64,000 bases of DNA, taken from Squalus acanthias. Its lineage: Eukaryota. Numbering within the stretch: position 1 is the first letter of the stretch; every line of letters starts with the position of its first letter. Shown one piece after another: positions 1,668 through 60,364 of this stretch. Below the pieces are notes generated by a model, which made no database searches, was not told where the DNA came from, and saw only the letters and a list, made by a program, of their open reading frames with translations. The stretch lies in contig CM059432.1 of assembly GCA_030390025.1 (NCBI GenBank), positions 58,406,001 through 58,470,000 on the forward strand, in the 5' to 3' direction. Both the position numbers and the translations under genes were made by a program.

Positions 1668-3433
1668 CTACTTTTTGCCCTTCGAGGGTGATCTCCTTCC
1701 CTTGCGCACTTCCCCCCTTCCCACCCGACTGCTCCTCCGTAATGGGACCTCAGTGGCTGCAGCAAGGCTGGCGGAAGGCTGCTGATTGTCAGAACTTGAG
1801 ACTGCAGATGCCCTTGAAGGAAGGCCTCGACCAGCTCTGGGCCTGGAGGGCCCGGCTGCAGACTGCACCAACTCTGCATGGGCGGCAGCAGTCTGTCCTA
1901 CAGGCGGTGGCAAGTGCAGTGGAGAAGTGACAGTGGTGGCAGCAGGAATGCTGTCATCTTGAGAGAGGGCAGCAACTCCCTGCTCGCCCGACACACTGGC
2001 ACTCCCATGGGGCAGCACTTCAGCATCCGGAGCAATCTGCTGGAGCACAGATTGCTGGCCTGCTGCGGCGCGGTGAGAGCCCCGGGGACATGTGAACGAA
2101 CCATCGAGGTTGGCAGCAGTCAGTGCTCGCGTGGCCTCAATCTGAGTCTGAATGAGAGCAGTCAGAGATGGGATCACGGCAGTCAGTGACTGAATTGCAG
2201 CACTAAGCATTAGTGTGGCATCCGCCTGTGCTACAGCGAAGTGCTCCGCACTCCTTGCCAGTGATTCAATGCATTCGAGCACCTTTCCCACTGCACCCAT
2301 GAGCTCAATGTGCATGTCCACCGCCTGGGTGTTCATTTCAGTGATGAGCCGCTCCTCCTCTGCGTCCAGTGCAGCAGGACTCGCTGGCATACTCTCCCTC
2401 CGGGGAGAAGGCCCCCGAGCTTCCCTAGCCACATCGCGTTGCTGCAGCCCGCTGGATCCTGGAGCTTCACCCTCATCAGACCCTTCCCCCTTGCTCCCCT
2501 CCAGGGAAGGCGTGTTCCCAGTGTGGGCATGGGCTTCCTCGGGAGAGGGTGGCGCTGATGCTCCGCCTTCATCTTCCTCCTCGGCTGCAGCTTCACTCCC
2601 ACTGGCAGCTTGAGGGCCCGTCTCCTCAGCTGGTGAATCACCATATGAAAGCAGGGAGGTACAAGTGTTGCTTTAGCGTGAGGACAGGGGGGCAGTATGG
2701 GAGGAATGAGTGCAGCGATTTAGTAAGTTGGATTGAAAGTGTCAAAGGCTGGTGTTGTGAGGGACAAGTGGAAGGACAGAGGACATAAAGGTGATGACCT
2801 TACCATTGCTGTCCAGAACGGGGTCGGCGTCTCCAGTGGCGAAGGGACCGATCACCCGGCTTGCCACAATCCTGTGGACGCGCGCCTCAAGATCGCTGAG
2901 GGGTTGCAGCTGAGGTCGCCCTCCACCCGTCCGTTGCTGCTGTCTCCTATTATGAGATAGCTTGGCCTGCAAGAAAAAGGACGGCGTCTGAGTAAATATA
3001 CAGCCATGGTCTTGCCTGATGTGCCTCCCATAGGTGAATAGCTCATACTGTATGCAAAGTGTGGAATGTGCGTTTGTGTTTCATGAGAGGGCCATAGGTG
3101 TTGGATGAGTGTTGTGCATTGGGGTTTTAAGACCCTCTGGCCATAGAGTGAGGTTGAGATGGAGGGATGGAGAGGTATTGAAAAAAAGCCACTCACCCTA
3201 ACGATCCGAGTGAGGTCGTTGAACTTTTTTCGACATTGTATATGGGTCCTGGGCACCACACTCCTGGAGGAGATGCTCTGAGCCACCTCCCTCCACACTC
3301 TTCTGTACTCGCGCGGCAAAGGCCTCCTGCCACTCTCAGGGAAGAGTATAGATCTTCTGCGCTCCACCCCGCCAACCAGAGCATCCAAGGCCCGCTCGCT
3401 GAAGCGCTGAGCTCGTTCTCTCACCCTCTCCAT
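1668..3433 (-). pseudogene. Harbinger Myb/SANT-like DNA-binding protein, 3 exons (3433-3197, 2966-2804, 2644-1668); exon 3 acceptor mutated
   Basis: Exon 1 reads RFSERALDALV...WREVA...RTHIQCRKKFNDL. Donors are GTGAGT and GTAAG. The exon 3 acceptor is TTTCAT here versus TTTCAG in the sibling copy. Confidence 0.85.
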
Positions 3434-3794
3434 AGTCCTTGGCTGGAAGATTTAGGCACAGGTCTCTCCAGGCCTAGATTCAAGGCTCCAATGAGCAGTG
3501 TGTGGCTGAAGAGCAAGATCGACCCTCCCCTTTAAGAACTGTCCGGCACCAGTGTGTCTGTGTTCCATCACTAACTGACAGCACCTGCGCTGCGCCCGTG
3601 CTCTGAGTTAGCGCCTCGCTCCTCGGCCTTTGCGCCTTAAGACAGGTGTGTAGTGCCTGATTTAGCGCTCCAATCACCTCCAGGGGCGATAAAAGTCAAG
3701 TTTGCAGTCAGAGGTGATAATTAGCGCCAGGCGCCAATCTTTGCGCCCGGCCGATAATTGCGCCCCAAATGGGGCGATACTGAATTTCTCCCCC

Positions 3795-4045
3795 AAGGAG
3801 TCATCAATTTAAAATTCCCATTAAGAAAACATGGAGAGGGGTTAGGAGAAATTTCTTTACACAGAGAGTTGTTGGAGCATTTAATGTTCTGCCACAGGGA
3901 ATAGTTGAGGCAGAGACCATTGCATCTTTTAAGGAAAAATTAGATAAATATTTGAAGCAGAGGGAGAAGAAAGTTACCATATAGTGGGATTAGTTTCAAC
4001 AAAAAAACTGGCAGCTACACAATGGGCCTAGGCTGTAAATTTCTA
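3795..4045 (+). mobile_element. Decayed CR1 LINE 3' fragment
   Basis: AGAAATTTCTTTACACAGAGAGTTG corresponds to the RNFFTQRVV C-terminus of the other CR1 copies in the window. Confidence 0.7.
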
Positions 4046-8887: not shown

Positions 8888-10972
8888 GGGGCTTGCAGGG
8901 TGTCGCAGCAGGCCAGCAATCTGTGCTCCAACAGATTGCTAGGAACGCTGAGGCGCCGCCCCGAGGAAGTGGCAGTGGGTCTGTGGAGCAGGACCCTGCT
9001 GTCCTCTCTCAGGATGACTGCATTCCTGTTCCCACTGCTGCCACTCTGCCATTACCCTTGCTGCTGCCTGACAGCCAGCCAGCCCAAACTGCTGCCGCCC
9101 TTGCCGAGATGGTGCAGTCTACAGCCAGGCCTTCTAGGGCCAGAGCTGCTCGAGGTCATCCTGCAAGCCGTTTGAAGTCTCCCACACAGAAACTCAGCAG
9201 CCTTCCACCAGCCATGCTGCAGTCACAGGGGGAGCACTTCGCCGGAGCACAAGATCAGGAAAGGGCACACGAACGACAGGCACAAAGAGATTGCATAAAG
9301 GTGATTAGTTCATATCATAACTCTAAATATGTGTCAATTGATTTTGGATAAATTTATTAATTTTGTTTGGAATCTTTTGTGATGTCTCTCATTTCAGCTT
9401 TATGCCCAGGAGGACGCTGTGATATTCCATGACAGAGGGATGGAATGATGGGGATGTGGTGAGCAACTGGGATCTGGGGATTCATTCATAGGAATCGAAG
9501 TCTGATGAGGTGTTAACGGACAGCCTGTCCAGAAGGGGGATTGGCTGCCTGCCTCGTCCCTTCCTCCTCATCCTCATCCTCTTCCTCTTCCTCATCTTCT
9601 TCTTTCTCCTCCACAAGGACTGTGCTGTGGTCACTGCTACCAATACTGTCGTGGACATCATTGAGGATGGGGATGCTCATGGAGCCTCCTCCTCCCATTA
9701 ATTGTTTAATTGTCCACCGCCATTCACGATTGGATGTGGCAGGGCTACAGTCTCTCTGTTCGTCTACACTTCTCAGTATCCTACCATTTATTGTGTATTC
9801 CCTGGCCTTGTTAGCGGGCATTGACCATCAGGAAGCGCTGGGCGTGGTCACACACCAAATGCACATTAAGTGAGTGGTAGCCTTTGCGGTTACGGAAGGT
9901 CTCAGGATTGTTATACGGAGTCCACAAAGCCACGTGGATGCAATCGATGGCGCCCTGCACCATGGAGAAGCCCGATATCTTGGCAAAGCCACATGCGCAC
10001 TCATCCTGCTTCTCTCTGCTCAGAGAGAAGAAAACATAGTCCCTTCTCCTGGTGTAGAGAGCCTCAGTGACCTCCTGGATGCAGTGATGGATGGCGAACT
10101 GGGAGATGTTAGCTATGGCTCCTGCTGCAGACTGGAAGGATCCATTGGCGAAGAAATTGAGGGCCACGGTGACCTTGAGGGCCACTGGGAGAGCCGTGTT
10201 CGCCCTGCTCTCAGGTTGCAGGTCTGGTTGCAGGAGGTGGCAGAGCTCTGTGACCACCTCCTTGGTGAAGTGGAGCCTCCCAATACACTACTTCTCGCTT
10301 AAGTGGATATATGAGAAATGCCCTCGGAAGACCCTAGGAGGATAAGGCCTCCTGTTGAGAGCCATCCTGACCCTCCTCCTCCTCCCTCTGCGAGCATCTT
10401 CTCGTCTTCTTCGCTGCCTCCGCTCCCTCTCCCGAAGATACTCAAGCGCAAGGGGGACTACAAGTAGAGCCCCCATGACTGTGAGCAAGTGTTGTGAGCA
10501 GAAGCCTTTAAATAAGAATGAAGGCATTCTCTACTTGCAACAACACTCCCTGTTGCCTTAGAAGAAGGTAATAAAGCTGCTGGAGTTGCAGAAAGTTGCA
10601 CAGAGTCAGTCAAACTGCAGAAACTTGTCAGGTGCAAGTTGTTGCTGATGATCCCTTTAAATACCACTGCTGGAGCCTCCTTCTTGCTTGTCAATGCTTG
10701 TTCAGCTCTTCGCACTTAAGGCATGCCGATAAGTGGAGCAGCAAAATCGAACTCACAGATCGGGCGTCAAGTGAGTGTTGCACACTCACTGATGTCACAA
10801 TCTGCATAATCTACATACCACTAGCGAGCGCGGACATCGGCAGCACTGCCAGCCATCTGAAAATGGCAGTTGCCGCAGGACCCACCGGTAGCGGGCGGAA
10901 GAGCAGCGGCCGCTATTTTTTTGCCCGAATCTGGCCGTAATGGGTGGCGCTAAAGCCCCAAATTTCTAGGCT
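8888..10972 (-). mobile_element. Decayed, truncated Harbinger: Myb-gene 3' part on + (8888-9300), transposase pseudogene on - (~9487-10476)
   Basis: AAGQQSVLQQIA homology to Myb exon 3. Transposase motifs RRPYPPRVF, VTELCHLLQPDLQP, GAIDCIH. TIR-like AATTTCTAGGC at ~10961-10972. Confidence 0.85.
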
Positions 10973-36570: not shown

Positions 36571-38140
36571 TTTTTTTTTAATTCGTTTATGAGATCTGGG
36601 CGTCGCTGGCAAGGCCAGCATTTATTGCCCATCCCTAATTGCCCTCAAGAAGGTGGTGGTGAGCCGCTTTCTTGAACCGCTGCAGTCCGTGTGGTGAAGG
36701 TACTCCCACAGTGCTGTTAGGTAGGGAGTTCCAGGATTTTGACCCAGCGACGATGAAGGATCGTCGATATATTTCCAAGTCAGGATGGTGTGTGACTTGA
36801 AGGGGAACTTGTAAGTGATGGTGTTCCCATGTGCCTGCTGCCCTTGTCCTTCTAGGTGGTAGAGGTCGCGGGTTTGGGAGGTGCTGTCGAAGAAGCCTTG
36901 GTGAGTTTCTGCAGTGCATCTTGTAGATGGTACACACTGCAGCCACGATACATCAGTGGTGGAGGAAGTGAATGTTTAAGGTGGTGGATGGGGTGCCAAT
37001 CAAACGGGCTGCTTTGTCCTGGATGGTGTCGAGCTTCTTGAGTGTTGTTGGAGCTGCACTCATTCAGGCAAATGGAGAGTATTCCATCACACTCCTTACT
37101 TGTGCCTTGTAGATGGTGGAAAGGCTTTGGGGAGTCAGGCGGTGAGACACTCACCACAGAATACCTAGCCTCTGACCTGCTCTTGTTGCCACAGTATTTA
37201 TGTGGCTGGTCCAGTTAGGTTTCTGGACAATGGTGACCCCCAGGGTGTTGATAGTGGGGGATTCGGCGATGGTAATGCCATTGAATGTCAAGGGGAGGTG
37301 GTTAGACTCGCGCTTGTTAGAGATAGTCATTGCCTGGCACTTCCATGGCGCGAATGTTATCTGCCACTTATCAGCCCAAGCCTGAACGTCGTCCAGGTCT
37401 TGTTGCATGCGGGCATGGACTGCTTCATTATCTGAGGAGATGTGAATGGCGCTGAACACTGTGCAGTCATCAGCAAACATCCCCATTTCTGACCTTATGT
37501 TGGAGGGAAGGTCATTGATGAAGCAGCCAAAGATGGTTGGGCCTAGGACACTGCCCTGAGGAACTCCTGCAGCAATGTCCTGGGGCTGTGATCATTGACC
37601 TTCAACCACCACAACCATCTTCCTTTGTGCTAGATATGACTCCAGCCAGTGGAGAGTTTTCCCCCCGATTCCCATTGACTTCAGTTTTACTAGGGCTTCT
37701 TGATGCCACACTTGGTCAAATGCTGCCTTGATGTCAAGGGCAGTCACTCTCACCTCACCTCTGGAATTCAGCTCCTTTGTCCATGTTTGGACCAAGGCTA
37801 TAATAAGGTCGGGAGCCGAGTGGTCTTGGCGGAACCCAAACTGGGCATCGGTGAGCAGGTTATTGGTGAGTAAGTGCCGCTTGATAGCACTGTTGATGAC
37901 ACCTTCCATCACTTTGCTGCTGATTGAGAGTAGACTGATGGGGCGGTAATTGGCTGGATTGGATTTGTCCTGCTTTTTGTGGACAGGACATACTTGGGCA
38001 GTTTTCCGCATTGTCGGATAGATGTCAGTGTTGTAGTTGTACTGGAACAGCTTGGCTAGAGGCACGGCTAGTTCTGGAGCACAAGTCTTCAGCACGACAG
38101 CCAGGATGTTGTCGGGGCCCACAGCCTTTGCTGTATCCAG
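36571..38140 (-). mobile_element. CR1-group LINE (second family), 3' part; interrupted by the LTR element and continuing at 46888-47075
   Basis: NYRPISLLS, QFGFR, LDIKAAFD and FADD motifs. The sequence resumes after the TSD. Confidence 0.9.
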
Positions 38141-39504
38141 TGTAGAATTCGCAATATATCGCGATTTTATAAATAAGGAGAAAACACATAGTTTCGTTCA
38201 AACAGCTTTATTTCAGCAGAATGCTGTCAGGTTTTCAAAGTGGACACAAGCAGCCTGTAAAATGGCCGCCGAGCATCGTGGCAGAAGCTTCCAGAATACA
38301 GTGGGCAGACAAGATGGCGTTCGAATAAACATTTCAGTATCAGATTGGTTAATACGCAGCAAACACTGATAAAGACAGGATGCAACCTGTCTGCATTCGA
38401 CACAATAGCAAAGATATAAGTGCTGGAATCATTTTCCATGCACAAGTAAGGACCATTGTAATGGGCAATCGAAGGCCCATCCAGACACAGCAATACACAT
38501 CAGTATTCGAGAAGGCCCCAAACCCAGTCAGGGAGACTCCTAGCCGGCTCGACAATGGGGAAAACATTAACGGCTACTTGGCCAGTTTAAGGTGCTACCG
38601 AAACCCATTAAAGGAAAGAATCGCCCCATGCTGGGAGTTTTGTGCACCAGCATTTCACAAAGGACAAACATTAAGATTTGAGCGGGAGATAAGGGAACAC
38701 AGCACTATAACTATAGTGAACAAATGTCCATCAAGGGCTTATTCTCTGGATTCGACTTATATCTCTGCTGACTCTTGACTCGGGCTGGACTCTTGACTGA
38801 TTGATCTCGCTGATGACTGCTGAACTTTTATTCTCCTATTCTGATCCTCGGGTATCGCTCTGCTGGACGAGCAGCCTTCTGTTTTTCTCTGGACTCTGTT
38901 GACTACGAGACGAGACGAGAAGAAGAGGAGAAGAATCCACGTACCGCCACGGTCAGTAAACCCCGACCGCGCCCGAAAATACAAGAAAGAACTGCAGCGA
39001 AACGAGCCGAGTGCCTTACTTTAAAATTCTCCGAGTTATCACGAGTGGTGAGCATGAGTCTCGATCCTACATATCTAGATTAGTGTAGGTATTAATAGGG
39101 GAGGGTGGTTTTAAGTTTTAAGGATAACTGTAATGTGTGCCCCCATCTATGATGTGTCGTTCGTTCCTCGTTTCCCTGAAATTAGTTACATAACTGCGTG
39201 TAAGATTGTACTGTCATTAATCTGTGCTTATGACATGTATTTCGTAATCTTAAATAATATGCAATAAAGATTTTCCATTTCGTACCATTCAACCGGGTCT
39301 ACCTGAGTTTTCTCTCCATTACTGCTCTCGCATCTAAGTCCAGTGTCAGAACCGTAAGGGCGAGTGGGTCGAACCACTCACAGGTGTCTAGTGCTCCCAG
39401 ACTGGCTGGAGACCAGAACAGGCAACAAGGCCTAACCTCGCACTAGCATCCAGGCTGCACAGAGCCACACGAATCTCACAGGCTGAGAGACGAAAACCCT
39501 TACA
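38141..39504 (+). repeat. 5' LTR (AATAAA at 39263)
   Basis: Direct repeat of 45524-46887. Confidence 0.97.
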
Positions 39505-39508
39505 GAAA

Positions 39509-41317
39509 ATGGCGACCGCGGCAGGACACTGGCAGCGAGAGGGTAGTGTGTTAGACTTTGGTGTGAATGTACGAAATGTTATGCAGGAAAAGATAGCAGA
39601 TTATGTGTTCGGAAAGGTAAATCTAACTAAGAAATGGATAAGTGACTTGTTAGCGGATAAGTGTCCACTAGAGGCAGCCGAGAGGTGGACAGATAGTAAG
39701 GAACATAAAAAGACAGTCGAGAAAGCAGTCTGGTTAATGTGTTACAAAAGGCAGGTCCAGATTTCAAACCAGGTCATTACAGCGCAAACAGCTCGGATCA
39801 GGCATTTAGAGGAGGAAATGGATGAGAAGGTCTCTGGAGGGGAGTTGCTCATTAGGAATTTAAGTGCGCTGCACCGAGAACGCCAGGAAATCACCAGTCA
39901 CCACAAAGCAAAAATAGATTACCTCGAGTGTCAGGTCACTGAGGCAAAGTTAAGTGAGGGCAGACTAAAGGAACGATGTGCCCGCCAAGCTGCCCAAATA
40001 AGAACCCAGGAAGAGAGCTTAACGGGGGTTAGGGCGGCATATAAGATGGCCCTTGAGGATAAATTTCAGGGGGCCGATCATAGCGCCTGCCAACAGGAGA
40101 TAGAGCACCTCAATAGGGCCGTGAACAAAGCGCACGGCATGGTGTGCCTTATCAGTCCGTCAGCACACCAGCCGCTAGTAAATGAGGAGTTTCAGAAATC
40201 CCCACCCAATAAAGCAAAGGAAGTATTAGCCACTACGCCCTCCGCGCCACCCAGCTATTCGGAAACCTGGGTAAGGGAGGAAGTAGTAGAAGAAACAGAA
40301 GAGCCCACTGAGGAAGAAGTGGAAAAGGGACCGTTGTGTCCAGTTACGGGTATAAAAAGGGGCCCAAACAGAAACGGTGGGGAGGAACCAGGGGTTCTCC
40401 TCAACCAGCTTGTGTTGCCTCACAGCTCACACCAGCTGAGAGTTATGATAAATCACGTACGGAAGCTGACCGAGTCAGACGACCCTTCCGTACACTTTAG
40501 AGAAGTTGAGCAAACCGCAGCCATTAACGGCTGCGATGATGGGGAAACAGCAAAAATGCTGTTATTCTCATTGGGTAGTTCGATCCTTCAGTGTCTCTCG
40601 GACGAGAGCAAGAAGGGAACCAAGACCTATGAGGCATTAAGAAATGAGGTCCTAGAAGTATTGGGGACGGACGATGAAGGTCCGTTTGTTAGAGTGGGAC
40701 AGACAGTGCAGATGGAGGGAGAACCCCCGAAGGTTTTCGCCGACAGGCTGTGGCCAGTATATCAGCGCAGCTGTCCAGGTGTGCCAGAGCGCGACGCTGT
40801 GGAAGGCATCGGTTTAACTCATTGGCTCAGGTGTATAGTAGCCAACAGTTTGCCAGCCGTCAGAGAGCAGGCAAAAGCGTGGTTTGATCCCACTGACCCC
40901 AACATTACGGAGGAGTCGGTCTTAAATCGACTCACGGTAGGATACCGTAATATCAGGGGTATGGGAACACGTCCCCTTAAGGGAAAAGTACATGAGGTAC
41001 GACCCGCAGCCCCGGCTCAAAAGGAGTGGCATCAGGAGGGTAACCGCGCCCCGCAGGCAAGTAATGCTTGTTACGGGTGTGGGAGGACAGGGCACTGGCG
41101 CAAGAACTGCAGGAACCCTTGGAAGGATTCCAGGGATAAAAATCCCGCAGCCCGAGCCCAGATGCCTGTCTCTGTTAGGGAAGCTAGTGCACCCACCCCT
41201 CCCGACGACCTCGAAACAGTGTTGGGAGCCATGCGCAACTTCATGAGTGCGCATGGAAAAGTGGCGGTTGCTACCGGCCCCGTAGGTGCCACAGGCCCGT
41301 CTAACAATACCCAATGA
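39509..41317 (+). CDS. gag: Gag-like protein (N-terminal coiled coil, capsid-like region, CCHC zinc knuckle), 602 aa
   Basis: CYGCGRTGHWRKNC knuckle (41069-41110), MHR-like QMEGEPPKVFADRL, and position directly after the LTR/PBS. Confidence 0.9.
   Translation: MATAAGHWQREGSVLDFGVNVRNVMQEKIADYVFGKVNLTKKWISDLLADKCPLEAAERWTDSKEHKKTVEKAVWLMCYKRQVQISNQVITAQTARIRHLEEEMDEKVSGGELLIRNLSALHRERQEITSHHKAKIDYLECQVTEAKLSEGRLKERCARQAAQIRTQEESLTGVRAAYKMALEDKFQGADHSACQQEIEHLNRAVNKAHGMVCLISPSAHQPLVNEEFQKSPPNKAKEVLATTPSAPPSYSETWVREEVVEETEEPTEEEVEKGPLCPVTGIKRGPNRNGGEEPGVLLNQLVLPHSSHQLRVMINHVRKLTESDDPSVHFREVEQTAAINGCDDGETAKMLLFSLGSSILQCLSDESKKGTKTYEALRNEVLEVLGTDDEGPFVRVGQTVQMEGEPPKVFADRLWPVYQRSCPGVPERDAVEGIGLTHWLRCIVANSLPAVREQAKAWFDPTDPNITEESVLNRLTVGYRNIRGMGTRPLKGKVHEVRPAAPAQKEWHQEGNRAPQASNACYGCGRTGHWRKNCRNPWKDSRDKNPAARAQMPVSVREASAPTPPDDLETVLGAMRNFMSAHGKVAVATGPVGATGPSNNTQ
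39510..39527 (+). promoter_or_regulatory. Primer binding site, complementary to tRNA-Arg(TCG) 3' end
   Basis: TGGCGACCGCGGCAGGAC is the reverse complement of GTCCTGCCGCGGTCG+CCA, the vertebrate tRNA-Arg-TCG 3' end as I recall it. It lies 5 nt after the LTR. Confidence 0.85.
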
Positions 41318-42424
41318 CTAGAGCCCACGCAGCCTGCCTACCTGTGTCCTTTTAAAAGACACGCACAGGAGGGGGTCTCCTGTGAGGAGGCCAGGTTAAA
41401 AGAGCAGGCCTTGCGGGAGGAGAACGCCCGCTTAATAGGGAAAATAGATGGGCTAGAAGGGCAGCTTAGAGAGCAGGCCCTGCGGGAGGAGAACGCCCGC
41501 TTAATGGGAAAGTTAGACGTGCTCAGGCTAGAAGGGCAGCTTAGAGAAATAAAAGCAGCCTACCAGGTAGCCAGAAGCAGGGATTTAAACCAGTGCAAAC
41601 TGTACAAGCCAGGTGCACAAGGGAAAACCACAGGGGCAAACCCTGCGAGTGGGGACTCGCAGCCCCAGGTAGGACCACAAGGCACACAGGCAGGCAGAGC
41701 AGCTTGCATCAGGGAAGGAGGCATCCTGGAAAATTGTGAAGCATTTTTGTGGGGTTGGGAGTCAGATGAGGGAGAGTTCCAGGAACTCGAGTCAGATGAG
41801 GATAGTGATGAGGACGAGTGGGAATCGGAGGACACAAGGGTCGCCCCCGATTCAGGTATAGGGAGGACAGGGGCTGCAGATAGAGATCCACACAGGGTGG
41901 ACACCCAGGCTGAAGGTCCCGAACACAGGAGGGAGGAGCTAGGGGAGGCGGAGCCAGCCACTGTGGGACCACAGGGCGGGACGGCGGAAACCTCAGAGCC
42001 CGAGCCGCCCGCCTTGAACGTCCTGCCCTCGAGGGAGGTAGGGACTGCGAGTGGAGGTTCGCCTGCTGGGCCGAGCAGGGCGGTGCCACAAGCTGCAGGT
42101 CCCGAGGTCAGGGAGGCGGAGTCAGGGGAGACGGAGCCAGCGACTGTGGTGGGACCACAGGTCGTCCCGGTGGAAGTCTCGGAACCCGGTCCGTTGGTCC
42201 TGGGATTCCTGCCCCCGACAACTCCTCGTAGGTCAGGTCGGGCACCCCAGCCCAGGAAGATGTGGTCATGTCCCCAGACTGCCCCAAGGCGCAGGCTCAA
42301 GGTTAAGGCAGCCCAGGAAGGGCCCAGTCCCATCGCAGCAGCAACAGGCTGCGGCAGATCAAAGGAAGGGGTCAGTGCCCTCCCACCGTCGGGAAGAGCT
42401 CGCAGCAGCCTTCTCAGAATTTAA
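41318..42424 (+). CDS. 368 aa ORF in frame with gag after TGA-CTAG; coiled-coil repeat plus acidic/Pro-rich region; no PR/RT/RH/IN motifs
   Basis: The frame is open from 41318 to TAA at 42422-42424, in the same frame as gag. Confidence 0.65.
   Translation, partial: LEPTQPAYLCPFKRHAQEGVSCEEARLKEQALREENARLIGKIDGLEGQLREQALREENARLMGKLDVLRLEGQLREIKAAYQVARSRDLNQCKLYKPGAQGKTTGANPASGDSQPQVGPQGTQAGRAACIREGGILENCEAFLWGWESDEGEFQELESDEDSDEDEWESEDTRVAPDSGIGRTGAADRDPHRVDTQAEGPEHRREELGEAEPATVGPQGGTAETSEPEPPALNVLPSREVGTASGGSPAGPSRAVPQAAGPEVREAESGETEPATVVGPQVVPVEVSEPGPLVLGFLPPTTPRRSGRAPQPRKMWSCPQTAPRRRLKVKAAQEGPSPIAAATGCGRSKEGVSALPPSGRARSSLLRI
41399..41548 (+). repeat. In-frame tandem duplication (~69/75 nt) encoding EQALREENARL...LEGQLR twice
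   Basis: Direct reading. Confidence 0.9.
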
Positions 42425-42724
42425 AGGGGCCGCCCTGGGAACGGGCGGCGCTGTACAGTAATAAGTTTAGGATAAGTTTCTAAGTTTATAGTTTAAGGTT
42501 AAGAATAAGTTTATAGTTTTAAATCAGGTTAAGTTTGTAGTTTAATTTTAACAGAAAATGGTAAAATGATGGGAGCTTTAGAGATAGGTTTAGTTAAGGT
42601 TTATCCAGCGAACATTGAAGTTTACGTGAGGCGAGGTCAGGGGACCCGCTCACCCTTCACAAAAGCCAGAGACTCTTGCGAGGCTGGCTACCTCATTCTA
42701 TCTGATCACAGGAACCAAGGAAGG

Positions 42725-45076
42725 ATGGAACGAATTCTAGTATTGCTCGCGGCAATCGGATGTGGATTGGCCTATCGAGGCCGTACCAAGGATGTCGTGG
42801 TGTTTGGATGCTCCGGGGACACGGCCCCCATCGCGGTGGATGGGACCGGAAGACGGGAGGCTGAGGAGACCACCACCTATTTCCACAAGGGAAGGTGGCC
42901 AGGATGGCTGGGAACGAACTCAACGGAGTATTCCAGCACATCAGGGTTTGCCTACCAAGAGACTTCTTTACTGTGCCCCAAAGTAAGGATCATCGCACCC
43001 AGGATCAGCGTCACCGTCGGCAAACGGATTTGTTTGACTTGTAGTGGGAATGTCCCATTGAGCCGATGGTGGTGGCTGCGAAAGCTGAGCAAAAACATGA
43101 GGAACTCTTCGGTCGAGTGGGAACGACTGGGTAATAATACCCATCGGACAATTACGGGGACAAACGGACAAGTGAGAGTCTGTTGGGACAAATGGTGGGT
43201 ACCGGATGAGGGAATTTATGTATGTATGTGGGGGTCAAAGTACGCTTGCCCCAAAGGCATCTCCATATTTTTCATTCATCAATGGCAGGATAACGGACAG
43301 GGGATGAGGTGGGATGCGAGCACCAGGGGGTGCGGAGCCCCATACTCTTCGATCCCGGTAAATACCACTGAGCTCATTACGCGCCCACGCAAAGCCCCGC
43401 CCACGATTCCGGTGGTTCTAGCTGAAGAGGAAGGGTGCCCTAAAACTAGTAAGGGACCCGGGAATGGTTTGGTACTGGTCCCCACAGACCAGATACTATT
43501 TCAGGGGGTACATTACGCGGTGGCCTCGGTGATTTTAAATCTCACCGAGGTGCGGTTACCAGAGTGGTGCCCCAAAAAGACGGAACAGTTATATCAGGTC
43601 CTGTTGACCAAGATGTTCAGACAATTTTACGAATTCGATTTCGCGGAAATTGATAAAACAAGTCTGTACACCGCACCACATGAAGTTTTGGATCAAGTAG
43701 GGAGGCAAAGAAGGGGTGTAGTGAACGACGTGTTCACTGCTTTTAACACGGGTACATCTGTGGTCAACGCTCTAGACAGTGTGGAGCTGCAGACCCAGAT
43801 TAATGGTTTAAAGACGCAATTAAAAGACATTCTAACAGATGAGAATAAAGTGGTTGGGTCAGGTTTACACGAGGACCAAGCCATGACTCTCCATTTAAAA
43901 GAAATTATAGCAGAGTTAGAGAAACATGCAAAGACGGTAAATGCCCTGATTAGGGAAGATCGGAATGCATCCGATCAAGCTGCGCAGAACGAGGTGTGCG
44001 TGATTTACGGGGCGTGGTTACTGGGCGAGGGCCGCAGTAATTTGGAGGATTTAAAACAAGGTTTGGTCCCGTCCTGGATAAGTAACAAACACCTGCGGGC
44101 GCTCCACCCTTTTCAGAACGCATTAAGCCCGTGCCAGCTCAGGCTAGCTTCAGAAGCTTACCCAGTCCCCGTGGACTGCGGACGATCAAACCATACTATC
44201 ATGGGTATAGTATTACGTATGCCGGTTTTGGGCGACACAGCAAAGCCCGCCCCGGTGTATCGGGTAGAGAACATTGGTGTCATTCAGGGGGGAGCCCACA
44301 TTCGCTATGCAGCGGTTCCACCCTACGTCATCCGCTGGGAGCAAACGATGACAGGTACAGATCTCTCTGGTTGTCGTGGCAGGGGAGCACACATAATACT
44401 GTGTCCCCAGCACTTGAATGCCTTTTTAACACCACAGTGCGGGTTCAGAACGGCTGGCGCCAAGTCCATGAATTGCACCATGGAGGCAATGGCACAAGAT
44501 CATGTGCCTCCGCAGGTAGCATACATCGGGGGTGGAACATATTGTGTTACCACTGCAGCGCAACACTACCAGCATGGAAACCGTAGCCGGTGTCCGGTGA
44601 GTGACAGCAGTTTCTGTTTCAAACCCAGGGCGGAAGTTCAAGTAGCACAACGGCGAATTGTCCCAATCCCTGAACCATCCACTGTTCATCTAACAGTAAA
44701 AGAGAATTTCACCGACTTGCAGCGATTCGTCGCGCATTTCGGATACCTCATTCCCCCTCTCCCTGAACACCTCACCAAGCTTTTAAAAGCCGTCGCGGTG
44801 TCACAGAAACATTTTTACACATTAGAACAGAAAACTGTCGAAATAGGAACAGACATTCTGGATATAGTAATTCCACCGTGGTGGAATCTGTTCACCAATA
44901 TTGAAGTGCCTTCATGGATCAGAATAGCCTCCCACATTTTAGTCGTATGCCAAGTTTTTATTGTAGTGTACCTATTGATCGTACATTGTAAAAGAGGCAA
45001 ACGCCTCACCAAGCATGAAAACACAGGAGAGTGGCGAGAACGTTACGTGCGCGTGCACGATGAAAGCACCGTGTAA
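42725..45076 (+). CDS. env: Envelope / class I fusion-type glycoprotein, 783 aa from the signal-peptide ATG (ORF open from 42566)
   Basis: Signal peptide MERILVLLAAIGCGLA, Ig-like segment, furin site RQRR (43703-43714) followed by a heptad region, Cys-rich region, TM HILVVCQVFIVVYLLIV and a basic tail. Confidence 0.88.
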   Translation: MERILVLLAAIGCGLAYRGRTKDVVVFGCSGDTAPIAVDGTGRREAEETTTYFHKGRWPGWLGTNSTEYSSTSGFAYQETSLLCPKVRIIAPRISVTVGKRICLTCSGNVPLSRWWWLRKLSKNMRNSSVEWERLGNNTHRTITGTNGQVRVCWDKWWVPDEGIYVCMWGSKYACPKGISIFFIHQWQDNGQGMRWDASTRGCGAPYSSIPVNTTELITRPRKAPPTIPVVLAEEEGCPKTSKGPGNGLVLVPTDQILFQGVHYAVASVILNLTEVRLPEWCPKKTEQLYQVLLTKMFRQFYEFDFAEIDKTSLYTAPHEVLDQVGRQRRGVVNDVFTAFNTGTSVVNALDSVELQTQINGLKTQLKDILTDENKVVGSGLHEDQAMTLHLKEIIAELEKHAKTVNALIREDRNASDQAAQNEVCVIYGAWLLGEGRSNLEDLKQGLVPSWISNKHLRALHPFQNALSPCQLRLASEAYPVPVDCGRSNHTIMGIVLRMPVLGDTAKPAPVYRVENIGVIQGGAHIRYAAVPPYVIRWEQTMTGTDLSGCRGRGAHIILCPQHLNAFLTPQCGFRTAGAKSMNCTMEAMAQDHVPPQVAYIGGGTYCVTTAAQHYQHGNRSRCPVSDSSFCFKPRAEVQVAQRRIVPIPEPSTVHLTVKENFTDLQRFVAHFGYLIPPLPEHLTKLLKAVAVSQKHFYTLEQKTVEIGTDILDIVIPPWWNLFTNIEVPSWIRIASHILVVCQVFIVVYLLIVHCKRGKRLTKHENTGEWRERYVRVHDESTV

Positions 45077-45523
45077 TCGGAAAATGGCGTCACTCCCGCT
45101 CGCCACGTGCGCCGCGGAGGTTTGTACTCGATCATGATTTTCAAAGACTGTAAATACGTTTGGAACTCGACATGTGTTAAGAGTTGGTGTTGATTATTTT
45201 GGTGATGGTGTTGTAGTTAAAAATGATTGTTTGGTTTTGGTTTTGTTTTTCCTTTCCCTAAATAAAAATATGAATATACAGGTGATACGAGAGGCATCGG
45301 CCTGGTTACGCCTGGAAGGAAAACAAGTGGTGTAAGTTTAAAGGCAAATAATGCCTACGGTGCTATAAAATGTAATTTTCTTGGGAAATAAGGACGACGC
45401 AAAGACCCTAGATAGTTTAAGTTATGGGATTAAATTTTCTGGATCTGGAGAAATCGAGATAATATTGCTCACCACAATATTTTTGATACGATAAGCGGAG
45501 TTATTCGCATCAACAGGAGGTAC

Positions 45524-46887
45524 TGTAGAATTCGCAATATATCGCGATTTTATAAATAAGGAGAAAACACATAGTTTCGTTCAAACAGCTTTATTTCAGC
45601 AGAATGCTGTCAGGTTTTCAAAGTGGACACAAGCAGCCTGTAAAATGGCCGCCGAGCATCGTGGCAGAAGCTTCCAGAATACAGTGGGCAGACAAGATGG
45701 CGTTCGAATAAACATTTCAGTATCAGATTGGTTAATACGCAGCAAACACTGATAAAGACAGGATGCAACCTGTCTGCATTCGACACAATAGCAAAGATAT
45801 AAGTGCTGGAATCATTTTCCATGCACAAGTAAGGACCATTGTAATGGGCAATCGAAGGCCCATCCAGACACAGCAATACACATCAGTATTCGAGAAGGCC
45901 CCAAACCCAGTCAGGGAGACTCCTAGCCGGCTCGACAATGGGGAAAACATTAACGGCTACTTGGCCAGTTTAAGGTGCTACCGAAACCCATTAAAGGAAA
46001 GAATCGCCCCATGCTGGGAGTTTTGTGCACTAGCATTTCACAAAGGACAAACATTAAGATTTGAGCGGGAGATAAGGGAACACAGCACTATAACTATAGT
46101 GAACAAATGTCCATCAAGGGCTTATTCTCTGGATTCGACTTATATCTCTGCTGACTTTTGACTCGGGCTGGACTCTTGACTGATTGATCTCGCTGATGAC
46201 TGCTGAACTTTTATTCTCCTATTCTGATCCTCGGGTATCGCTCTGCTGGACGAGCAGCCTTCTGTTTTTCTCTGGACTCTGTTGACTACGAGACGAGACG
46301 AGAAGAAGAGGAGAAGAATCCACGTACCGCCACGGTCAGTAAACCCCGACCGCGCCCGAAAATACAAGAAAGAACTGCAGCGAAACGAGCCGAGTGCCTT
46401 ACTTTAAAATTCTCCGAGTTATCACGAGTGGTGAGCATGAGTCTCGATCCTACATATCTAGATTAGTGTAGGTATTAATAGGGGAGGGTGGTTTTAAGTT
46501 TTAAGGATAACTGTAATGTGTGCCCCCATCTATGATGTGTCGTTCGTTCCTCGTTTCCCTGAAATTAGTTACATAACTGCGTGTAAGATTGTACTGTCAT
46601 TAATCTGTGCTTATGACATGTATTTCGTAATCTTAAATAATATGCAATAAAGATTTTCCATTTCGTACCATTCAACCGGGTCTACCTGAGTTTTCTCTCC
46701 ATTACTGCTCTCGCATCTAAGTCCAGTGTCAGAACCGTAAGGGCGAGTGGGTCGAACCACTCACAGGTGTCTAGTGCTCCCAGACTGGCTGGAGACCAGA
46801 ACAGGCAACAAGGCCTAACCTCGCACTAGCATCCAGGCTGCACAGAGCCACACGAATCTCACAGGCTGAGAGACGAAAACCCTTACA
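45524..46887 (+). repeat. 3' LTR, preceded by short purine tract AACAGGAGG
   Basis: Direct repeat of 38141-39504. Confidence 0.97.
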
Positions 46888-47075
46888 CCAGTGCGCTCAG
46901 CCGTTTCTTGATGTCACATGGAGTGAATCAAATTGGCTGAAGACTGGCTTCTGTGATGGTGGGGACCTCAGGAGGAGGCCGATATGGATCATCCACTCGG
47001 CACTTCTGGCTGAAGATGGTTGCAAACGCTTCAGCCTTGTCTTTTGCACTCAAGTGCTGGGCTCCACCATCATTG
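46888..47075 (-). mobile_element. Continuation of the LINE interrupted by the LTR element
   Basis: Removing the element restores GCTGTATCCAGTGCGCTCAGCCGTTTC, a continuous LINE reading frame. Confidence 0.85.
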
Positions 47076-47949: not shown

Positions 47950-49442
47950 GGATTAGAAATTCATTATAGCCCAGGAATGGGCGGTATCTTTAGAAAAGTT
48001 TGAGAATTGGCACCAGGCGCTAATGCTTTAGACTGCACGCAAAATTCATTATCACTGCTCAAATACATGATTGGGCGCTAAATCAAGTCTTAAAGGCTTA
48101 GCTCATTGGCGTTACACTGAAAGGGTGGACCAATATCGGGTGCAGTCTAATCTCAACTCTTCATTGCCACAGGTTTTTCCCAGTACTTAAAGGGGAGGTT
48201 CATTGATACTGCAGCACCTCATTGTCAGCATTGTTGGCTGTGCAGCTGCCTCAGCAAGGAGAAGCACAACAAGGAGAAGGAGCCGGAGGACTGAAGCAGG
48301 TGTGCTCATGGCAGATCCACCTCAGTCGAGTGGTAGCCTTTGCATTACGGAAGATCTCAGGATTGTTGTGCAGTGCCCGCAAAGCCACATGGGTGCAGTC
48401 AATGGCATCCTGCACCATGGGGAATCCCGCTATCCTGACAAAGCCACATGCACACTCGCCCTGCTTCTTTCTGGTGATGGGGAAGGAAATGTATTCCCTT
48501 CTCCTTCTGTACATAGCATCTGTGACCTGGTGGATGCAGCGATGGATGGCGAACTGCGAGATGTTAGTTATGTCTCCTGTTGCAGACTGGAAGGATCTGC
48601 TGGCGAAGAAATTGAGGGCGGCGGTGACCTTGACTGCTACTGTGAGAGCCGTGTCGCCCTGGTCTGAGGCTGGAGGTCTGGTTGCAGGAGGTGGCAGAGT
48701 TCTGTGACCACCTCCTTGGTGAAGCGGAGCCTTCTAATCCACTGCTCCTCGCTTAATTGGAGGTAGGAGACGTGCTCTCGGAATACCCTCGGAGGGTAAG
48801 TCCTCCTGTTGAGAGCCCTAATGGCCCTCCTCCTCCTTCTGGCCACATCTTGTAATCTTTCTCGCTGCCTCCGCTCCCTCCGCAGTAGATCCTGGAGGGC
48901 GAGGTCGACTGCCAGTACAGCCCCCATTAATGTAACCAAGTGTAGCAGTTTGAATTAAAAAAAAATAAATGTAGCTACTTTTTAGTTGCCACAACACTCC
49001 TCATACAAAATAACCTTGAAATTATTGAATTAAACTGTTGCACTATGTGAAACTGACAAGAAACCACTGAAACTCCATTAATCTGACAGCTGCGAGTCGT
49101 TACTGATGATCCCTTTAAATATCATCCCTGTAGCTGGCTTTCTGCTGCTTCTTGCCAACTCTCCCTGTCACTGTTTACTCCAGGCGCTAAGGTAGGTGAC
49201 GACAATCAATTTCACAGATTGGGCACTCACCGAGTGTTGCACACTCACTGACATCACAATCCAACTGGCATTGAGGTTCCCAGCGATAACTGTTAGCGGT
49301 GGCTCTGCGGTGGGGGGGGGGGGGGGGCAGGATTTGATGAGCAGCATTGGATTTGCCTCGCCCCGGTGATAATACTCTACAAACCTGTTAGTGCCATCTG
49401 TTGGTGCTAACAGGAGGCGCTAAGCTACCGAATTTTCCCCCC
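47950..49442 (-). mobile_element. Internally deleted Harbinger retaining the transposase N-terminal half (~48320-48930)
   Basis: RRTYPPRVFRE, RLRFTKEVVTELCHLLQ, AIDCTHVAL. TIR-like ends GGATTAGAAATT / AATTTTCCCCCC. Confidence 0.8.
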
Positions 49443-55738: not shown

Positions 55739-56301
55739 TCTGTTCACGTTGTCTTTCTGCAAGTTGTTTATTTTATTTACTGAAGATGTTGGGGTAAAAA
55801 TTCACTTGGTTGCGCCTCCCGTTAGCGCCTTAAGAGGGCGCTAATGGGGCATTAAGCCGCTAACGCCCGGGCGCAGCGATGTTTGAGCCGCTCGAGAACT
55901 TAACTTGAGATTGTGCGGCGGCGCTAAAACTTACCGCTGCGACCACCTGCGCGCGCAGATTGTGACGTCATTCCATGGTGCAACGCCCTTGGGGCGCCCC
56001 GGAGCGGAAATTGAGTGGCGCCCCCTGCCTTACCGCCTGGCGCTTCCAACGACCGGAAGACTGGAACGCTATCAATCGGTGTGGGGCTGGGGGGGGCGCT
56101 ATTTAAAGGGGGCCTCTTCCTGTCTTTTTCTGTGGTCGACATTTATGCACCACTCGTTCTGAGAGAGAGAGAGAGATTCGGAGAGAGAGAGAGAGAGACT
56201 TCTACATTGACTCAACGCTTTGTGAGGTAGTTTTGCCTATTCATCCTAACTTTGTTGCTACTTTAGTTGCTGTACCTCATGACTTTTCTGGCAAAGAGAA
56301 T

Positions 56302-57462
56302 ATGGGGGCTGCAATGATTGGGGGCGTCGTCCTGCTCCAGCTGAATCGGAGGATACCGAGACGCAGACAGAGAGTGGCAATGATGGCCAGACGGAGGAGG
56401 GCCATCAGGCGCTTGTACAGGAGAGCTTACCCTCCCAGGGTATATCGTGAACAGCTCTCCTACATCCATATGTCCGAGGAGCTGTGTTTGCGAAGGCTGC
56501 GATTCAGCAAGGAGGTGGTCACTGAGCTCTGCCACCTGCTGCAGCCAGATCTGCAGCCTCAGCTGAGGTCCAGGACGTCTCTGTCGGTAGCAGTGAAGGT
56601 CACAGTGGCTTTGAACTTCTACGCCACTGGCTCATTCCAAGCTGCTGTTGGGGACCTCGCCAATATCTCCCAGTTTGCGGTGCATCGCTGCATCCGGCAG
56701 GTCACCAATGCCCTCTTCAGAAGGAGACGAGACTTCATCTCTTTCCCTATGACCCCAGACAAGCAGTGTGACCGTGCTCTGGGCTTTGCGAGGGTAGCGG
56801 GCTTCCCCATGGTGCAGGGCGCCATTGACTGCACGCATGTGGCTTTGCGTGCTCCGCGAGAGAATGCAGAGGAATTCAGGAACAGAAAGGGGTTCCATTC
56901 CTTGAATGTGCAGTTGGTCTGTGACCACAGACAGGTGATACTCGCTGTCAATGCCCACTATCCGGGCAGCTGCCACGATGCTTTCATCCTGCACCAGACT
57001 ACTGTGGCAGAAGTTTTCGAGGCACCGCATCAGCCAGTTGGTTGGCTTCTGGGGGACAAGGGGTACGCATTGAGCACCTGGCTGATGACACCGCTCCGTA
57101 CGCCAAACACCCCTGCTGAGCTGCGGTACAATGAAAGCCATCAAGCAACCAGGAACATTATTGAGCGCACAATCGGCGTGCTGAAACAACGGTTCCGCTG
57201 TCTGGACCATTCCGGAGGAGCCCTGCAGTACTCGCCTGAGCAAGTTTCGAACTTCGTAGTCGTGTGCTGCATGTTGCACAACATGGCAATCCTCAGGACC
57301 CAGCCAATGCCACCAGGCCTTGTAGCACCACCAGAGGAGGAGGAGGAAGAGGAGGAAGAGGACGAGGACGATGATCATCAGCAGCACCAAGGCAGGAGGG
57401 CGGCCCACAATGGTCAAACTGCAAGGGCCGTCCGTCAACGACTAATAGCAAGCCGCTTCTAG
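56302..57462 (+). CDS. Harbinger DDE transposase, 386 aa
   Basis: ATG at 56302. Catalytic motifs GAIDCTH, LLGDKGY and NIIERTIG are all intact. Confidence 0.95.
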   Translation: MGAAMIGGVVLLQLNRRIPRRRQRVAMMARRRRAIRRLYRRAYPPRVYREQLSYIHMSEELCLRRLRFSKEVVTELCHLLQPDLQPQLRSRTSLSVAVKVTVALNFYATGSFQAAVGDLANISQFAVHRCIRQVTNALFRRRRDFISFPMTPDKQCDRALGFARVAGFPMVQGAIDCTHVALRAPRENAEEFRNRKGFHSLNVQLVCDHRQVILAVNAHYPGSCHDAFILHQTTVAEVFEAPHQPVGWLLGDKGYALSTWLMTPLRTPNTPAELRYNESHQATRNIIERTIGVLKQRFRCLDHSGGALQYSPEQVSNFVVVCCMLHNMAILRTQPMPPGLVAPPEEEEEEEEEDEDDDHQQHQGRRAAHNGQTARAVRQRLIASRF

Positions 57463-57756
57463 GGCCCCTGCCATTGCTACAAACACTAATCAACCCAGCA
57501 CGCAACCCCTAAGCCGGCCAAGGCACCAATAATTCCAACCACCAGCCATGTATATTTTGAATACAGAAACTTATTTATTTTACAAACTCTGTGTGTGTCA
57601 ATTCCTCATGACAAACTCATAGAAATAAACACAAAAAAACAGTCAATAACATAACTGGTTCTCACAACCTGGAGATAATGTCCAAAACACTAAACAAAAG
57701 TTGGACCATGAACCTCGGCCTTTAATAAAAAAATGACCAGCATTTTGTCACACCTC

Positions 57757-59525
57757 CTACGTTTTGCCCTTCGAGGGTGATCTCCTTCCCTTGCGCACTT
57801 CCCCCCTTCTAACCCTACTGCTCCTCCGTAATGGGACCTCAGTGGCTGCAGCAAGGCTGGTGGAAGGCTGCTGCTCGTCAGACCCTGACACTGCAGATGC
57901 CCGTGAAGGACGGCTTCGACCACTTCTGGGCCTGGAGGGCCCGGCTGCAGACTGCACCAACTCTGCATGGGCGGCAGCAGTCTGTCCTACAGGCGGTGGC
58001 AAGTGCAGTGGAGAAGTGACAGTGTTGGCAGCAGGAATGCTGTCATCGTGAGAGAGGCCAGCAACTCCCTGCTCGCCCAACACACTGGCACTCCCACGGG
58101 GCAGCACTTCAGCATCCGGAGCAATCTGCCGGAGAACAGATTGCTGGCCTGCTGTGGCGCGGTGACAGCCCCGGGGACATGTGCACGAACCATCGAGGTT
58201 GGCAGCAGTCTGTGCTCGCGTGGCCTCCATCTGAGTCTGTATGAGAGCAGTCAGAGGTGGGATCACGGCAGCCAGTGACTGAATTGCAGCACTAAGCGTT
58301 AGTGTGGCATCCGCCTGTGCTACAGCGAAGTGCTCCACACTCCTTGCCAGTGACTCAATGCATTCGGGCACCCTTCCCACTGCACCCATGAGCTCAGTGT
58401 GCATGCCCACCGCCTGGGTATTCATTTCTGCAATCAGCCGCTCCTCCTCTGCGTCCATTGCAGTAGGAGTGTCTGGCATACTCTCCCTCTGGGGAGAAGG
58501 CCCCCGTTCTTCCCTACCCCCCCCATGGTGTTGCTGCAGCCCGCTGGGTCCTGGAGCTTCACCATCATCAGCCCCTTCCCCCCTGCTCCCCTCCGGGGAA
58601 GGCGTGTTCCCAGTGTGGGCATGGGCTTCCTCGGGAGAGGATGGCACTGATGCTCTGGCTTCCTCTTCCTCCTCAGCTGCAGCATCACTCCCAGTGGCAG
58701 CTTCAGGGCCCGTCTCCTCAGCTGGTGAATCACCATCTGAAAGCAGGGAGGTACAAGAGTGGCTTTAGCGTGAGGACAGGGTGGCAGTAAGGGAGGAATA
58801 AGTGCAGCGAGTTAGCAAGTTGGATTGAAAGTGTCAAAGGCTGGTGTTGTGAGGGACAAGTGGAAGGACAGAGGACAAAAAGGTGATGACCTTACCATTG
58901 CTGTCCACAACGGGGTCGGCGTCTCCAGTGGCGACGGGACCGATCACCCGGCTTGCCACAATCCTGTGGACGCGCTCCTCCAGATCGCTGAGGGGTTGCA
59001 GCTGAAGCCGCCCTCCACCTGTCCGTTGCTGCTGTCTCCTATTATGAGCCAGCTTAGCCTGCAAGAAAAAGGACAGCATCTGAGTAAATATACAGCCATG
59101 GTCTTGCCTGATGTGCCTCCCATAGGTGAATAGCCCTTACTGTATGCAAAGTGTGGAATGTGTGTGTGTGTTTGATGAAAGGGCCATAGGTGTTGGATGA
59201 GTGTTGTGCATTGGGGTTTTAAGACCCTCTGGCCATAGAGTGAGGTTGAGATGGAGGGATGGAGAGGTATTGAGAAAAAGCCACTCACCCTGACGACCCG
59301 AGTGAGGTCGTTGAACTTTTTGCGGCATTGAGTATGGGTCCTGGGCACCATGCTCCTGGAGGAGACGCTCTGAGCCACCTCCCTCCACACTCTTCTGAAC
59401 TCGCGTGGCAAAGGCCACCTGCCACTCTCAGGGAACAGCATACATCGTCTGCGCTCCACTGCATCAACCAGAGCATCCAAGGCCCGCTCGGTGAAGCGAT
59501 GAGCGCGTTCTCTCACCCTCTCCAT
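57757..59525 (-). CDS. Harbinger Myb/SANT-like protein, 3 exons (59525-59289, 59058-58896, 58736-57757), 459 aa
   Basis: Canonical GT-AG introns, phases 0 and 1; the exons join into a 1380 nt open frame. Confidence 0.9.
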
Positions 59526-60364
59526 GCTTGGCAGCAAAATGGATTCACAGGTCTCTCCAGGCCGAGATTCAAGGCTGCAATGAGCAGGGTGTGGCTGGGG
59601 AGCAAGTGGCCCCCCCCGCTTTAAGAAGTGTCCGGCGCTAGTGTGTCTGTGTTCCCTCGCTAACTGGCAGCAGCTGCGCTGCGCTCGCGCGCTGAGTTAG
59701 CGCCTCACTCCTTGGCCTTTGCGCCTTAAGACAGGTGTGCAGCGCCTGCTTTAGCGCTCCACTCACCTCCCGGGGCGGTAAAAGTGAAGTTTCCTGTCAG
59801 TGCCGATAATTAGCGCCAGGCGCTAATATTTGCGTCCGGACGATATTTGCGCCCCAAATGGGGCGCGACCTAATTTCTACCCCGTTGTTCTGTAGCAGCA
59901 AGACCCTGGAACACAGTGTACATAGATATGTAGGTCTCTTCCTGGAATGTTATATTCTCACATTGTGCTGGAGCTCACTACATTTATTTGGAATAATCAC
60001 TTTTTTGTCTTGCTACACCTAAGTTAATATAGTTATATTTATATCTCATTAATCTTATTCTGGCTTTTTGGTAACAAGTCATCTGACTTCTTTGAAGTGA
60101 TATCAAAGATTTGTGGTTGGTTTTGACATAGAAAGGCCTGTCTAAAAGTTAAGCTGAAAATCACTTCCATGCACCAATTGGCACTAAAGCTTATTTTTCT
60201 ATTGTACTTAGCTCTCTTCTGTTCATGTTAGCCAAAGTATGGATAAGAAGTCTTTTGGTCGCAGCTTATGGCAGCATCATCAATGGGTTTGTGAAGGTTC
60301 CCTCTACTAAGTATTTCCAGCAAAATAGTAAAGATGGAATAATGTTTACAGCTTCACTGGAAAC

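Follow-up and report, generated by a model that had tools for sequence, protein, structure and literature searches.

A pol-less, gag- and env-bearing form of a lokiretrovirus-like endogenous retrovirus family in Squalus acanthias, probably copied in trans by a pol-bearing partner

We analysed a 64,000-nt stretch of the Squalus acanthias genome (NCBI GenBank assembly GCA_030390025.1, contig CM059432.1, positions 58,406,001 to 58,470,000 of the forward strand; hereafter the window, whose positions serve as coordinates below). An element with two long terminal repeats (LTRs), an open gag gene and an open env gene occupies positions 38141–46887 of the window on the + strand, and the core of pol is missing from it. 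We consider it likely that this element is a pol-null, helper-dependent form of a recombining, lokiretrovirus-like endogenous retrovirus (ERV) family, and that it has been copied in trans by a pol-bearing partner. A first-pass annotation had proposed that the element borrowed a helper's enzymes while keeping structural genes of its own. The helper's side of this proposal stands, as a pol-containing partner with the same LTR ends and primer-binding site (PBS) was found; gag and env, however, are shared with the helper's pool, and the notion of a separate satellite is not supported.

A six-frame motif scan of the interior gave neither YxDD nor an integrase zinc finger nor a protease motif in frame (the stray matches, one DTGS and three LPQG, fall outside coding frames), and no Pfam pol family was found in any interior frame tested. 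The earlier statement that the interior has no pol is right for the core of protease (PR), reverse transcriptase (RT), RNase H (RH) and integrase (IN), but a few codons of the protease start (11) and about 280 non-catalytic codons of the integrase tail remain. These two remnants and an insert between them make up a third open frame (41318–42424, 368 codons), which is in frame with gag after its UGA-CUAG stop and was overlooked when the element was described as having two genes. The 5' junction of the insert is at 41349/41350, directly after the 11 pol codons, and its 3' join to the integrase tail is at about 41585.

The same layout occurs many times in the genome (3.7 Gb; the genome-wide figures given here are pattern counts or small samples). 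A 24-mer over the pol-less 5' junction matches exactly at 955 places and its pol-bearing counterpart at 1388, so that the pol-less share is 41%, and the reversed controls match nowhere; these figures tally exact matches rather than independent insertions, and tandem copies (runs of them can be seen) or haplotype duplicates may be among them. Exact LTR starts number 4,419 genome-wide. From 11,547 candidates 21 were scored: 12 (the window copy included) have the pol-less layout, and in the remaining nine, RNase H and integrase sequence reaches the same join. Eight copies were picked by position, not by score; seven of them show stub, insert and tail up to the env start, and the eighth covers the gag side. 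Among the first 100 listed LTR starts there are 26 same-strand neighbour pairs less than 13 kb apart (five at 7.7–7.8 kb, 19 at 10.7–11.2 kb and two at other distances). A contig from an independent public run also spans the 5' junction. Four of the five other copies with both flanks visible have a 4-bp target-site duplication (TSD) of their own, and the LTR pairs of five copies differ at 3 to 45 positions; these LTR-pair differences and individual TSDs imply that the pol-less form was inserted over a span of time. With the junction at no fewer than 955 places, the earlier inference that the element integrated already without pol is borne out.

The partner, seen in two upstream stretches, has the gag, pol and env genes between two LTRs that the window copy, without the pol core, does not have in full. 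Its LTR ends and PBS are the same as those in the window, its Gag is 95% identical, and its order is UGA-CUAG, protease, RT, tether, RNase H and integrase. The genomic evidence fits complementation in trans: the cis signals have been kept, the enzymes have been lost, the lesion is shared by many copies with separate TSDs, and a matching partner exists. Next to the pol-less junction, the bases are consistently unlike those of the two helper copies seen. The window copy's own 3' junction has exact matches at 73 places; we considered this low count as a sign of a different continuation in the other copies and rejected it, as the window type is a variant with a 9-nt in-frame deletion. Members of the family are also found in nested and head-to-tail arrays, some with a period of 7.6–8.1 kb (G000 C1:20940714-20963662, with L009, L031 and L038; C3295:86896-118562).

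The ratio of nonsynonymous to synonymous substitution rates (dN/dS) was calculated among 10–11 pol-less copies, excluding L006 (much older) and the gag of L009 (which is that of a neighbouring element). It is 0.15–0.18 for env and 0.27–0.32 for gag, and the nonsynonymous:synonymous counts are lower for shared changes than for singletons in both genes (8:42 versus 50:68 in env, Fisher p 0.001; 19:36 versus 73:55 in gag, p 0.006). Neutral evolution of the two genes, which would have counted against the earlier proposal, is therefore not what we see. The env genes of pol-bearing copies, nine in number, give the same picture (dN/dS 0.16–0.19, shared changes 8:38). Trees of env and of the tail interleave pol-less and pol-bearing copies, with weak support, and the one helper gag that was sampled is placed inside the pol-less gag tree, the gag side being less tested. 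Between positions 41585 and 45523 there are no fixed differences between 12 pol-less and nine pol-bearing copies; for env the fixation index (Fst) between the two groups is 0.022 and for the tail 0.015, neither being significant (permutation p 0.12 and p 0.21, respectively); 149 of 196 informative sites (118 of 157 when CpG sites are left out) have every one of the four possible combinations with pol state; and each LTR type is found with each pol state. The gag and env genes are the property of one recombining family pool, shared with the helper, and because the gene pool is a single one their constraint cannot be credited to the pol-less form. Selection on retroviral Env is usually taken as a sign of reinfection; here it shows that the family replicated under selection on Env; that pol-less genomes rely on the copies they carry does not follow. 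The literature distinguishes three routes by which ERVs amplify (PMC10435555).

Several points weigh against this picture of a helper-dependent form in a freely mixing pool. Only one of 15 inner branches of the env tree has strong support. The copies compared for Fst were picked because they resemble the window copy, a choice that reduces divergence in both groups, and the pol-less copies picked by position, which are more diverged (80–89% around the slot), are outside that test. Ectopic gene conversion among proviruses could mimic part of the mixing. Finally, read-through, splicing and co-packaging are predictions from genomic sequence.

The product of the insert is a coiled coil that is duplicated internally, except in one older copy, where a single unit is present. 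This unit aligns with the coiled coil in the Gag of a second loki-like family in the same genome over 43 residues without a gap (score 96; the best of 1000 shuffles scores 58, and the element's own Gag 54). By this comparison the insert resembles a Gag coiled-coil piece from another loki-like family. An origin from the element's own gag was tried and is weak (E 0.32; hhalign probability 26), the second family fitting better. At the nucleotide level the insert and the second family are roughly two-thirds identical, which is too little for the second family itself to have been the donor; the donor would be a relative, which was not found. The second family is itself abundant (L035–L037; G000 C3, C18 and C20), with a Gag 43% identical, a similar Arg-type PBS and a UGA-CUA context. 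In L036 and L037 the frame past the stop departs from protease-like sequence after about 85 codons, and this family may have a pol-less form of its own. In one copy (L013, G000 C2462:316199-316219) the insert begins directly at an LTR end, but as a clue to origin this was set aside, since it occurs once in the genome; it is probably a nested insertion.

We infer, as the simplest origin, that a template switch to co-packaged foreign RNA, that of a related loki-like virus, gave rise to the pol-less form; about 3.4 kb of pol would thereby have been exchanged for a short in-frame piece of the other virus's gag. The shortened genome, with its cis signals kept, would then be packaged with helper Gag-Pol and be reverse-transcribed and integrated by helper enzymes. 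When it is packaged together with helper RNA, template switching would swap gag, env, the integrase tail and the LTR middle between the two forms. As a consequence of ongoing switching, the lineage would be marked only by the pol slot and the bases that adjoin it. Read-through at UGA-CUAG, co-packaging, splicing of env and extracellular reinfection are putative steps of this scheme.

A further claim, which adds to helper dependence and is not an alternative to it, is that the pol-less form is a contributing defective genome, selected to make Gag and Env of its own and a Gag–insert–tail product that tunes the Gag:Gag-Pol ratio or shields the RNA from nonsense-mediated decay (NMD). We regard this as possible and rather doubtful. 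All five length changes specific to the pol-less form are in frame (the original join, the duplication, a 6-nt insertion in the second repeat, the 9-nt deletion and a longer alternative 3' join), which has a chance of about 0.4% if they are independent. The read-through frame is open in seven of eight copies (the window copy and seven picked by position) and is at least 346 aa long in 115 of the 150 best-scoring matches, a score-biased set; of its eight gap events six are multiples of three, whereas in the non-coding spacer next to it the figure is two of 14 (Fisher p 0.008). Of the seven position-picked copies that cover the stop, six have UGA-CUAG or UAA-CUAG there, and UGA-CUAG has been reported to promote read-through and to lower NMD in reporters (PMC9661723). 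The residues themselves are not conserved, however: dN/dS is 1.1–1.4 in the tail and 0.7–0.8 in stub and insert, that is, the amino acids drift and the reading frame is kept, which would fit NMD protection or a spacer-like Gag fusion. Against selection for a contribution it also counts that the tail indels may have been born in the helper and imported later, that young copies could keep frames open by chance, and that not all pol-less copies have an intact env (internal deletions in at least two of 11, and a stop or frameshift in three of the eight with full env cover, versus four of nine pol-bearing genes interrupted). A stem downstream of the gag stop that would promote read-through is not supported (z −2.0 in the window, −0.1 in the partner).

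The same observations allow a bolder version, to which we give still less credence: a stable pol-null allele, present in about 40% of the junction-bearing copies, whose slot was refilled by a foreign Gag coiled coil and has been kept open by selection, the genomes supplying Gag, an F-type Env and a Pol-free read-through protein and spreading by Env-mediated reinfection in mixed particles. If it were true, a system of defective-interfering or cooperating genomes would be frozen in about a thousand germline copies.

It is improbable, in our judgement, that the pol-less copies are an independent satellite lineage, i.e. a separate element with a gag and an env of its own that takes the enzymes alone from a helper. 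The constraint on both genes among pol-less copies would agree with it, as would the deeper gag comparisons between such copies (dN/dS 0.47 and 0.51) and the junction-adjoining bases that set them apart from the two helper copies. But the env genes of pol-bearing copies are equally constrained, the trees interleave, the sampled helper gag lies within the pol-less tree and both LTR types go with both pol states, and for the sub-lineage of the window copy the lack of differentiation largely refutes it. A satellite virus has structural genes of its own, unrelated to those of its helper; here the Gag proteins are 95% identical and env has no fixed differences. We give hardly any weight to a deletion unique to this copy after it had inserted, to an assembly artefact or to domestication of gag/env by the host. 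The window copy does have two open genes and an uncommon exact 3' junction, but its 5' junction is shared by 955 places, the 3' count is explained by the deletion variant, a deletion cannot account for foreign gag sequence, the LTRs are near-identical and an independent contig bridges the junction.

The features of the element are collected in Table 1. The two LTRs have TG...CA ends and differ only at 38648/46031 and 38774/46157; these mismatches, the TSD, the PBS and the short purine tract are as the first-pass annotation had described them, and gag (602 aa) and env (783 aa) are indeed uninterrupted. Substitution rates in sharks are low, and the youth suggested by two mismatches in 1364 nt is relative to the host rate. 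The insertion site is within a long interspersed nuclear element (LINE) reverse-transcriptase frame that resumes beyond the TSD. The TSDs of five copies (CCAG three times, CGGG and CCTG; window, L003, L005, L006 and L010) suggest a preference for targets with C first and G last (n=5). In most of the copies sampled the LTR is 1.65–1.72 kb long, versus 1364 nt in the window copy, and the LTR middle (38362–39024) is a swappable block: the window type is found in one pol-less and one pol-bearing copy, and the longer type in the others. An open reading frame (ORF) of 132 aa in the LTR was rejected as a gene, being missing from the other copy with the same LTR type and from nine further LTRs. The PBS is the complement of CCA plus the final 15 nt of a host tRNA-Arg(TCG) gene. 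This tRNA gene lies in long tandem arrays with a period of about 1623 nt (G000 C26:38.99-42.2 Mb, L034), with tRNA-Ser(GCT) nearby, and there are 427 exact matches genome-wide. Elsewhere in the window there are dispersed repeats (pairs 84–94% identical) at 1–4000 and 56000–60000, 9800–10400 and 48300–48900.

Table 1. Features of the element and its target site in the window
Feature	Position	Strand	Remarks
TSD, left copy	38137..38140	.	CCAG, 4 bp; within a minus-strand LINE RT frame
5' LTR	38141..39504	+	1364 nt; AATAAA at LTR position 1123; middle (~38362-39024) is a minority variant
gag	39509..41317	+	602 aa; coiled coil 68-183, predicted capsid fold ~313-486, CCHC knuckle 520-535; stop UGA-CUAG
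PBS	39510..39527	+	18/18 complementary to tRNA-Arg(TCG) + CCA; overlaps first gag ATG
pol (protease) start stub	41318..41349	+	~11 codons; homologous to the start of the partner's pol
Insert	41350..41584	+	235 nt; replaces the PR-RT-RH-IN core; in-frame Gag coiled-coil fragment (by resemblance), repeat units 69 nt apart
Integrase C-terminal tail	41585..42424	+	~280 codons; acidic, Pro/Gly-rich, past the SH3-like domain; closes the read-through frame
Splice-acceptor-like site, 5' of env	42540..42554	+	predicted from sequence pattern; found in 24/26 anchored copies
env	42725..45076	+	783 aa; signal peptide, RQRR at 327-330, fusion peptide, heptad helices, F-like body, transmembrane segment ~730-755, possible weak immunoglobulin (Ig)-like head
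Polypurine tract	45515..45520	+	short
3' LTR	45524..46887	+	2 mismatches to the 5' LTR
TSD, right copy	46888..46891	.	CCAG

The Gag protein has a weak zinc knuckle and nothing else in Pfam. The best match of its structural model is the capsid of murine leukaemia virus (MLV; 6HWX: Foldseek E 1e-3; VIA Z 11.4, root-mean-square deviation 3.0 over 93 residues); the model was built from four sequences and the scores are modest, and they point to an MLV/Ty3-like capsid fold. The first gag ATG lies over the PBS, which means that the initial residues of Gag are encoded by the PBS. A methionine at Gag residue 25 is invariant across four homologues and may be the true start.

For Env, the frame is open from 42566, giving 836 aa from the first ATG and 783 aa from the signal-peptide ATG at 42725, and 20 of 26 anchored copies have the 53-codon upstream extension open. 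At the sequence level, searches of Pfam and PDB with Env detected no likeness to F proteins. The structural model (mean pLDDT 62), in contrast, matches the F proteins of human parainfluenza virus 3 (E 1.6e-10) and respiratory syncytial virus (2.2e-10), and every row listed is an F protein; as modelled, Env is related to paramyxovirus and pneumovirus F. The cleavage motif RQRR fits RXXR, and not the strict RXKR. F-type Env proteins are widespread in retroelements (bioRxiv 10.1101/2023.10.26.564294). Residues ~80–190 of Env (42965–43300) form a possible Ig-like head, with a C...W...DxGxYxC pattern seen by eye. Its scores are weak: Pfam Ig_3 E is 0.39 in the window and 0.0085 in one homologue, V-set gives 0.045 in another, Atlas scores of 0.80–0.82 are a lead only, that region of the model is of low confidence, and a PDB profile search was dominated by a fused zinc-finger protein. 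A bamboo-shark homologue of Env carries the name 'Ig-like domain-containing protein'. The nearest homologues of Env and Gag are from skate and sawshark, which points to a cartilaginous fish as the host.

The pol of the partner helps to place the family. It has two RNase H domains (RT_RNaseH at 497–602, E 7.5e-19; RNase_H at 650–755, E 4e-11), and its best named match is a coelacanth NYNRIN-like polyprotein (41%, in a search of long proteins only with a query that left out the integrase), a name that would fit the CGIN1/NYNRIN affinity of lokiretrovirus integrases. Its RT scores higher with MLV-type (E 6e-68) and foamy (2e-61) than with Ty3 (6e-42) enzymes, and its integrase matches only generic gypsy-type integrase clusters in Atlas. 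Lokiretroviruses are described as having dual RNase H, an MLV-like capsid and an F-like Env with RXXR (PMC7947760, Wang and Han 2020). Judging from the modelled Env and Gag and from the RNase H domains and pol match, the family likely belongs to the lokiretroviruses. Of the two affinities suggested earlier, lokiretrovirus or env-bearing Ty3/Gypsy, the first is therefore retained; the second (errantivirus) is disfavoured, since the partner has a tether and a second RNase H and not a single RNase H.

The family extends lokiretrovirus-like elements to cartilaginous fish, a class in which none of six genomes was positive in the survey of Wang and Han, according to its supplement (PMC7947760). A literature search turned up neither a pol-less gag+env lokiretrovirus nor a report of lokiretroviruses in cartilaginous fish, and repeat libraries (Repbase/Dfam) or supplements may already hold the family; nor did we find in print the combination of a loki-like cartilaginous-fish family, about a thousand pol-less places, a helper that is abundant too, almost unrestricted exchange and a read-through frame kept open by a piece of foreign Gag. 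The pol-less form would be overlooked by surveys that are RT-based or admit only elements with an intact pol. With about 950 pol-less and 1,400 pol-bearing junctions, the genome offers a natural data set on whether defective gag+env genomes are parasites or contributors, a question that is open for Athila elements. It also shows a trap: a low dN/dS in non-autonomous copies is no proof that they use their own genes when recombination with a helper is free.

Compared with known systems, the family resembles lokiretroviruses in organisation, as the partner shares with them the gag-pol-env layout, dual RNase H, MLV-like capsid, F-like Env and RXXR motif, as well as a coiled-coil ('smc') region ahead of gag (one entry in the supplement is headed 'smc-gag-pol gene'); the amplified pol-less gag+env form, read-through, the tRNA primer and an Ig-like head go unmentioned in the available portions of the survey (PMC7947760). 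The zebrafish BHIKHARI elements Bik-1 and Bik-2 (bioRxiv 10.1101/2024.03.25.586437) are likewise described as non-autonomous lokiretroviruses, recently mobile and mobilised by a partner, with a coiled-coil and capsid Gag of about 617 aa. They differ in having gag only (Bik-2 is without pol or env) and in their numbers of insertions (196 and 393), and for Bik-1 no pol-bearing copy is reported from the reference genome, whereas the squalid element keeps env and has an abundant partner in the same genome. Chicken EAV-HP (PMC3747184) is another vertebrate ERV with gag and env domains, no pol, identical LTRs and a proposed dependence on a helper, and its env has been tied to ALV-J through recombination; however, it is alpharetrovirus-like, has an ordinary retroviral Env and one predicted fused protein, and no captured foreign gag is reported in the parts of that account available. 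The non-autonomous Athila families of Arabidopsis (PMC2410132) are similar in having LTRs, gag and env without pol, purifying selection and recombination links to autonomous families, but they are plant Ty3/Gypsy elements in which distant families exchange sequence occasionally, whereas here the exchange with a 95–97% identical partner is nearly free.

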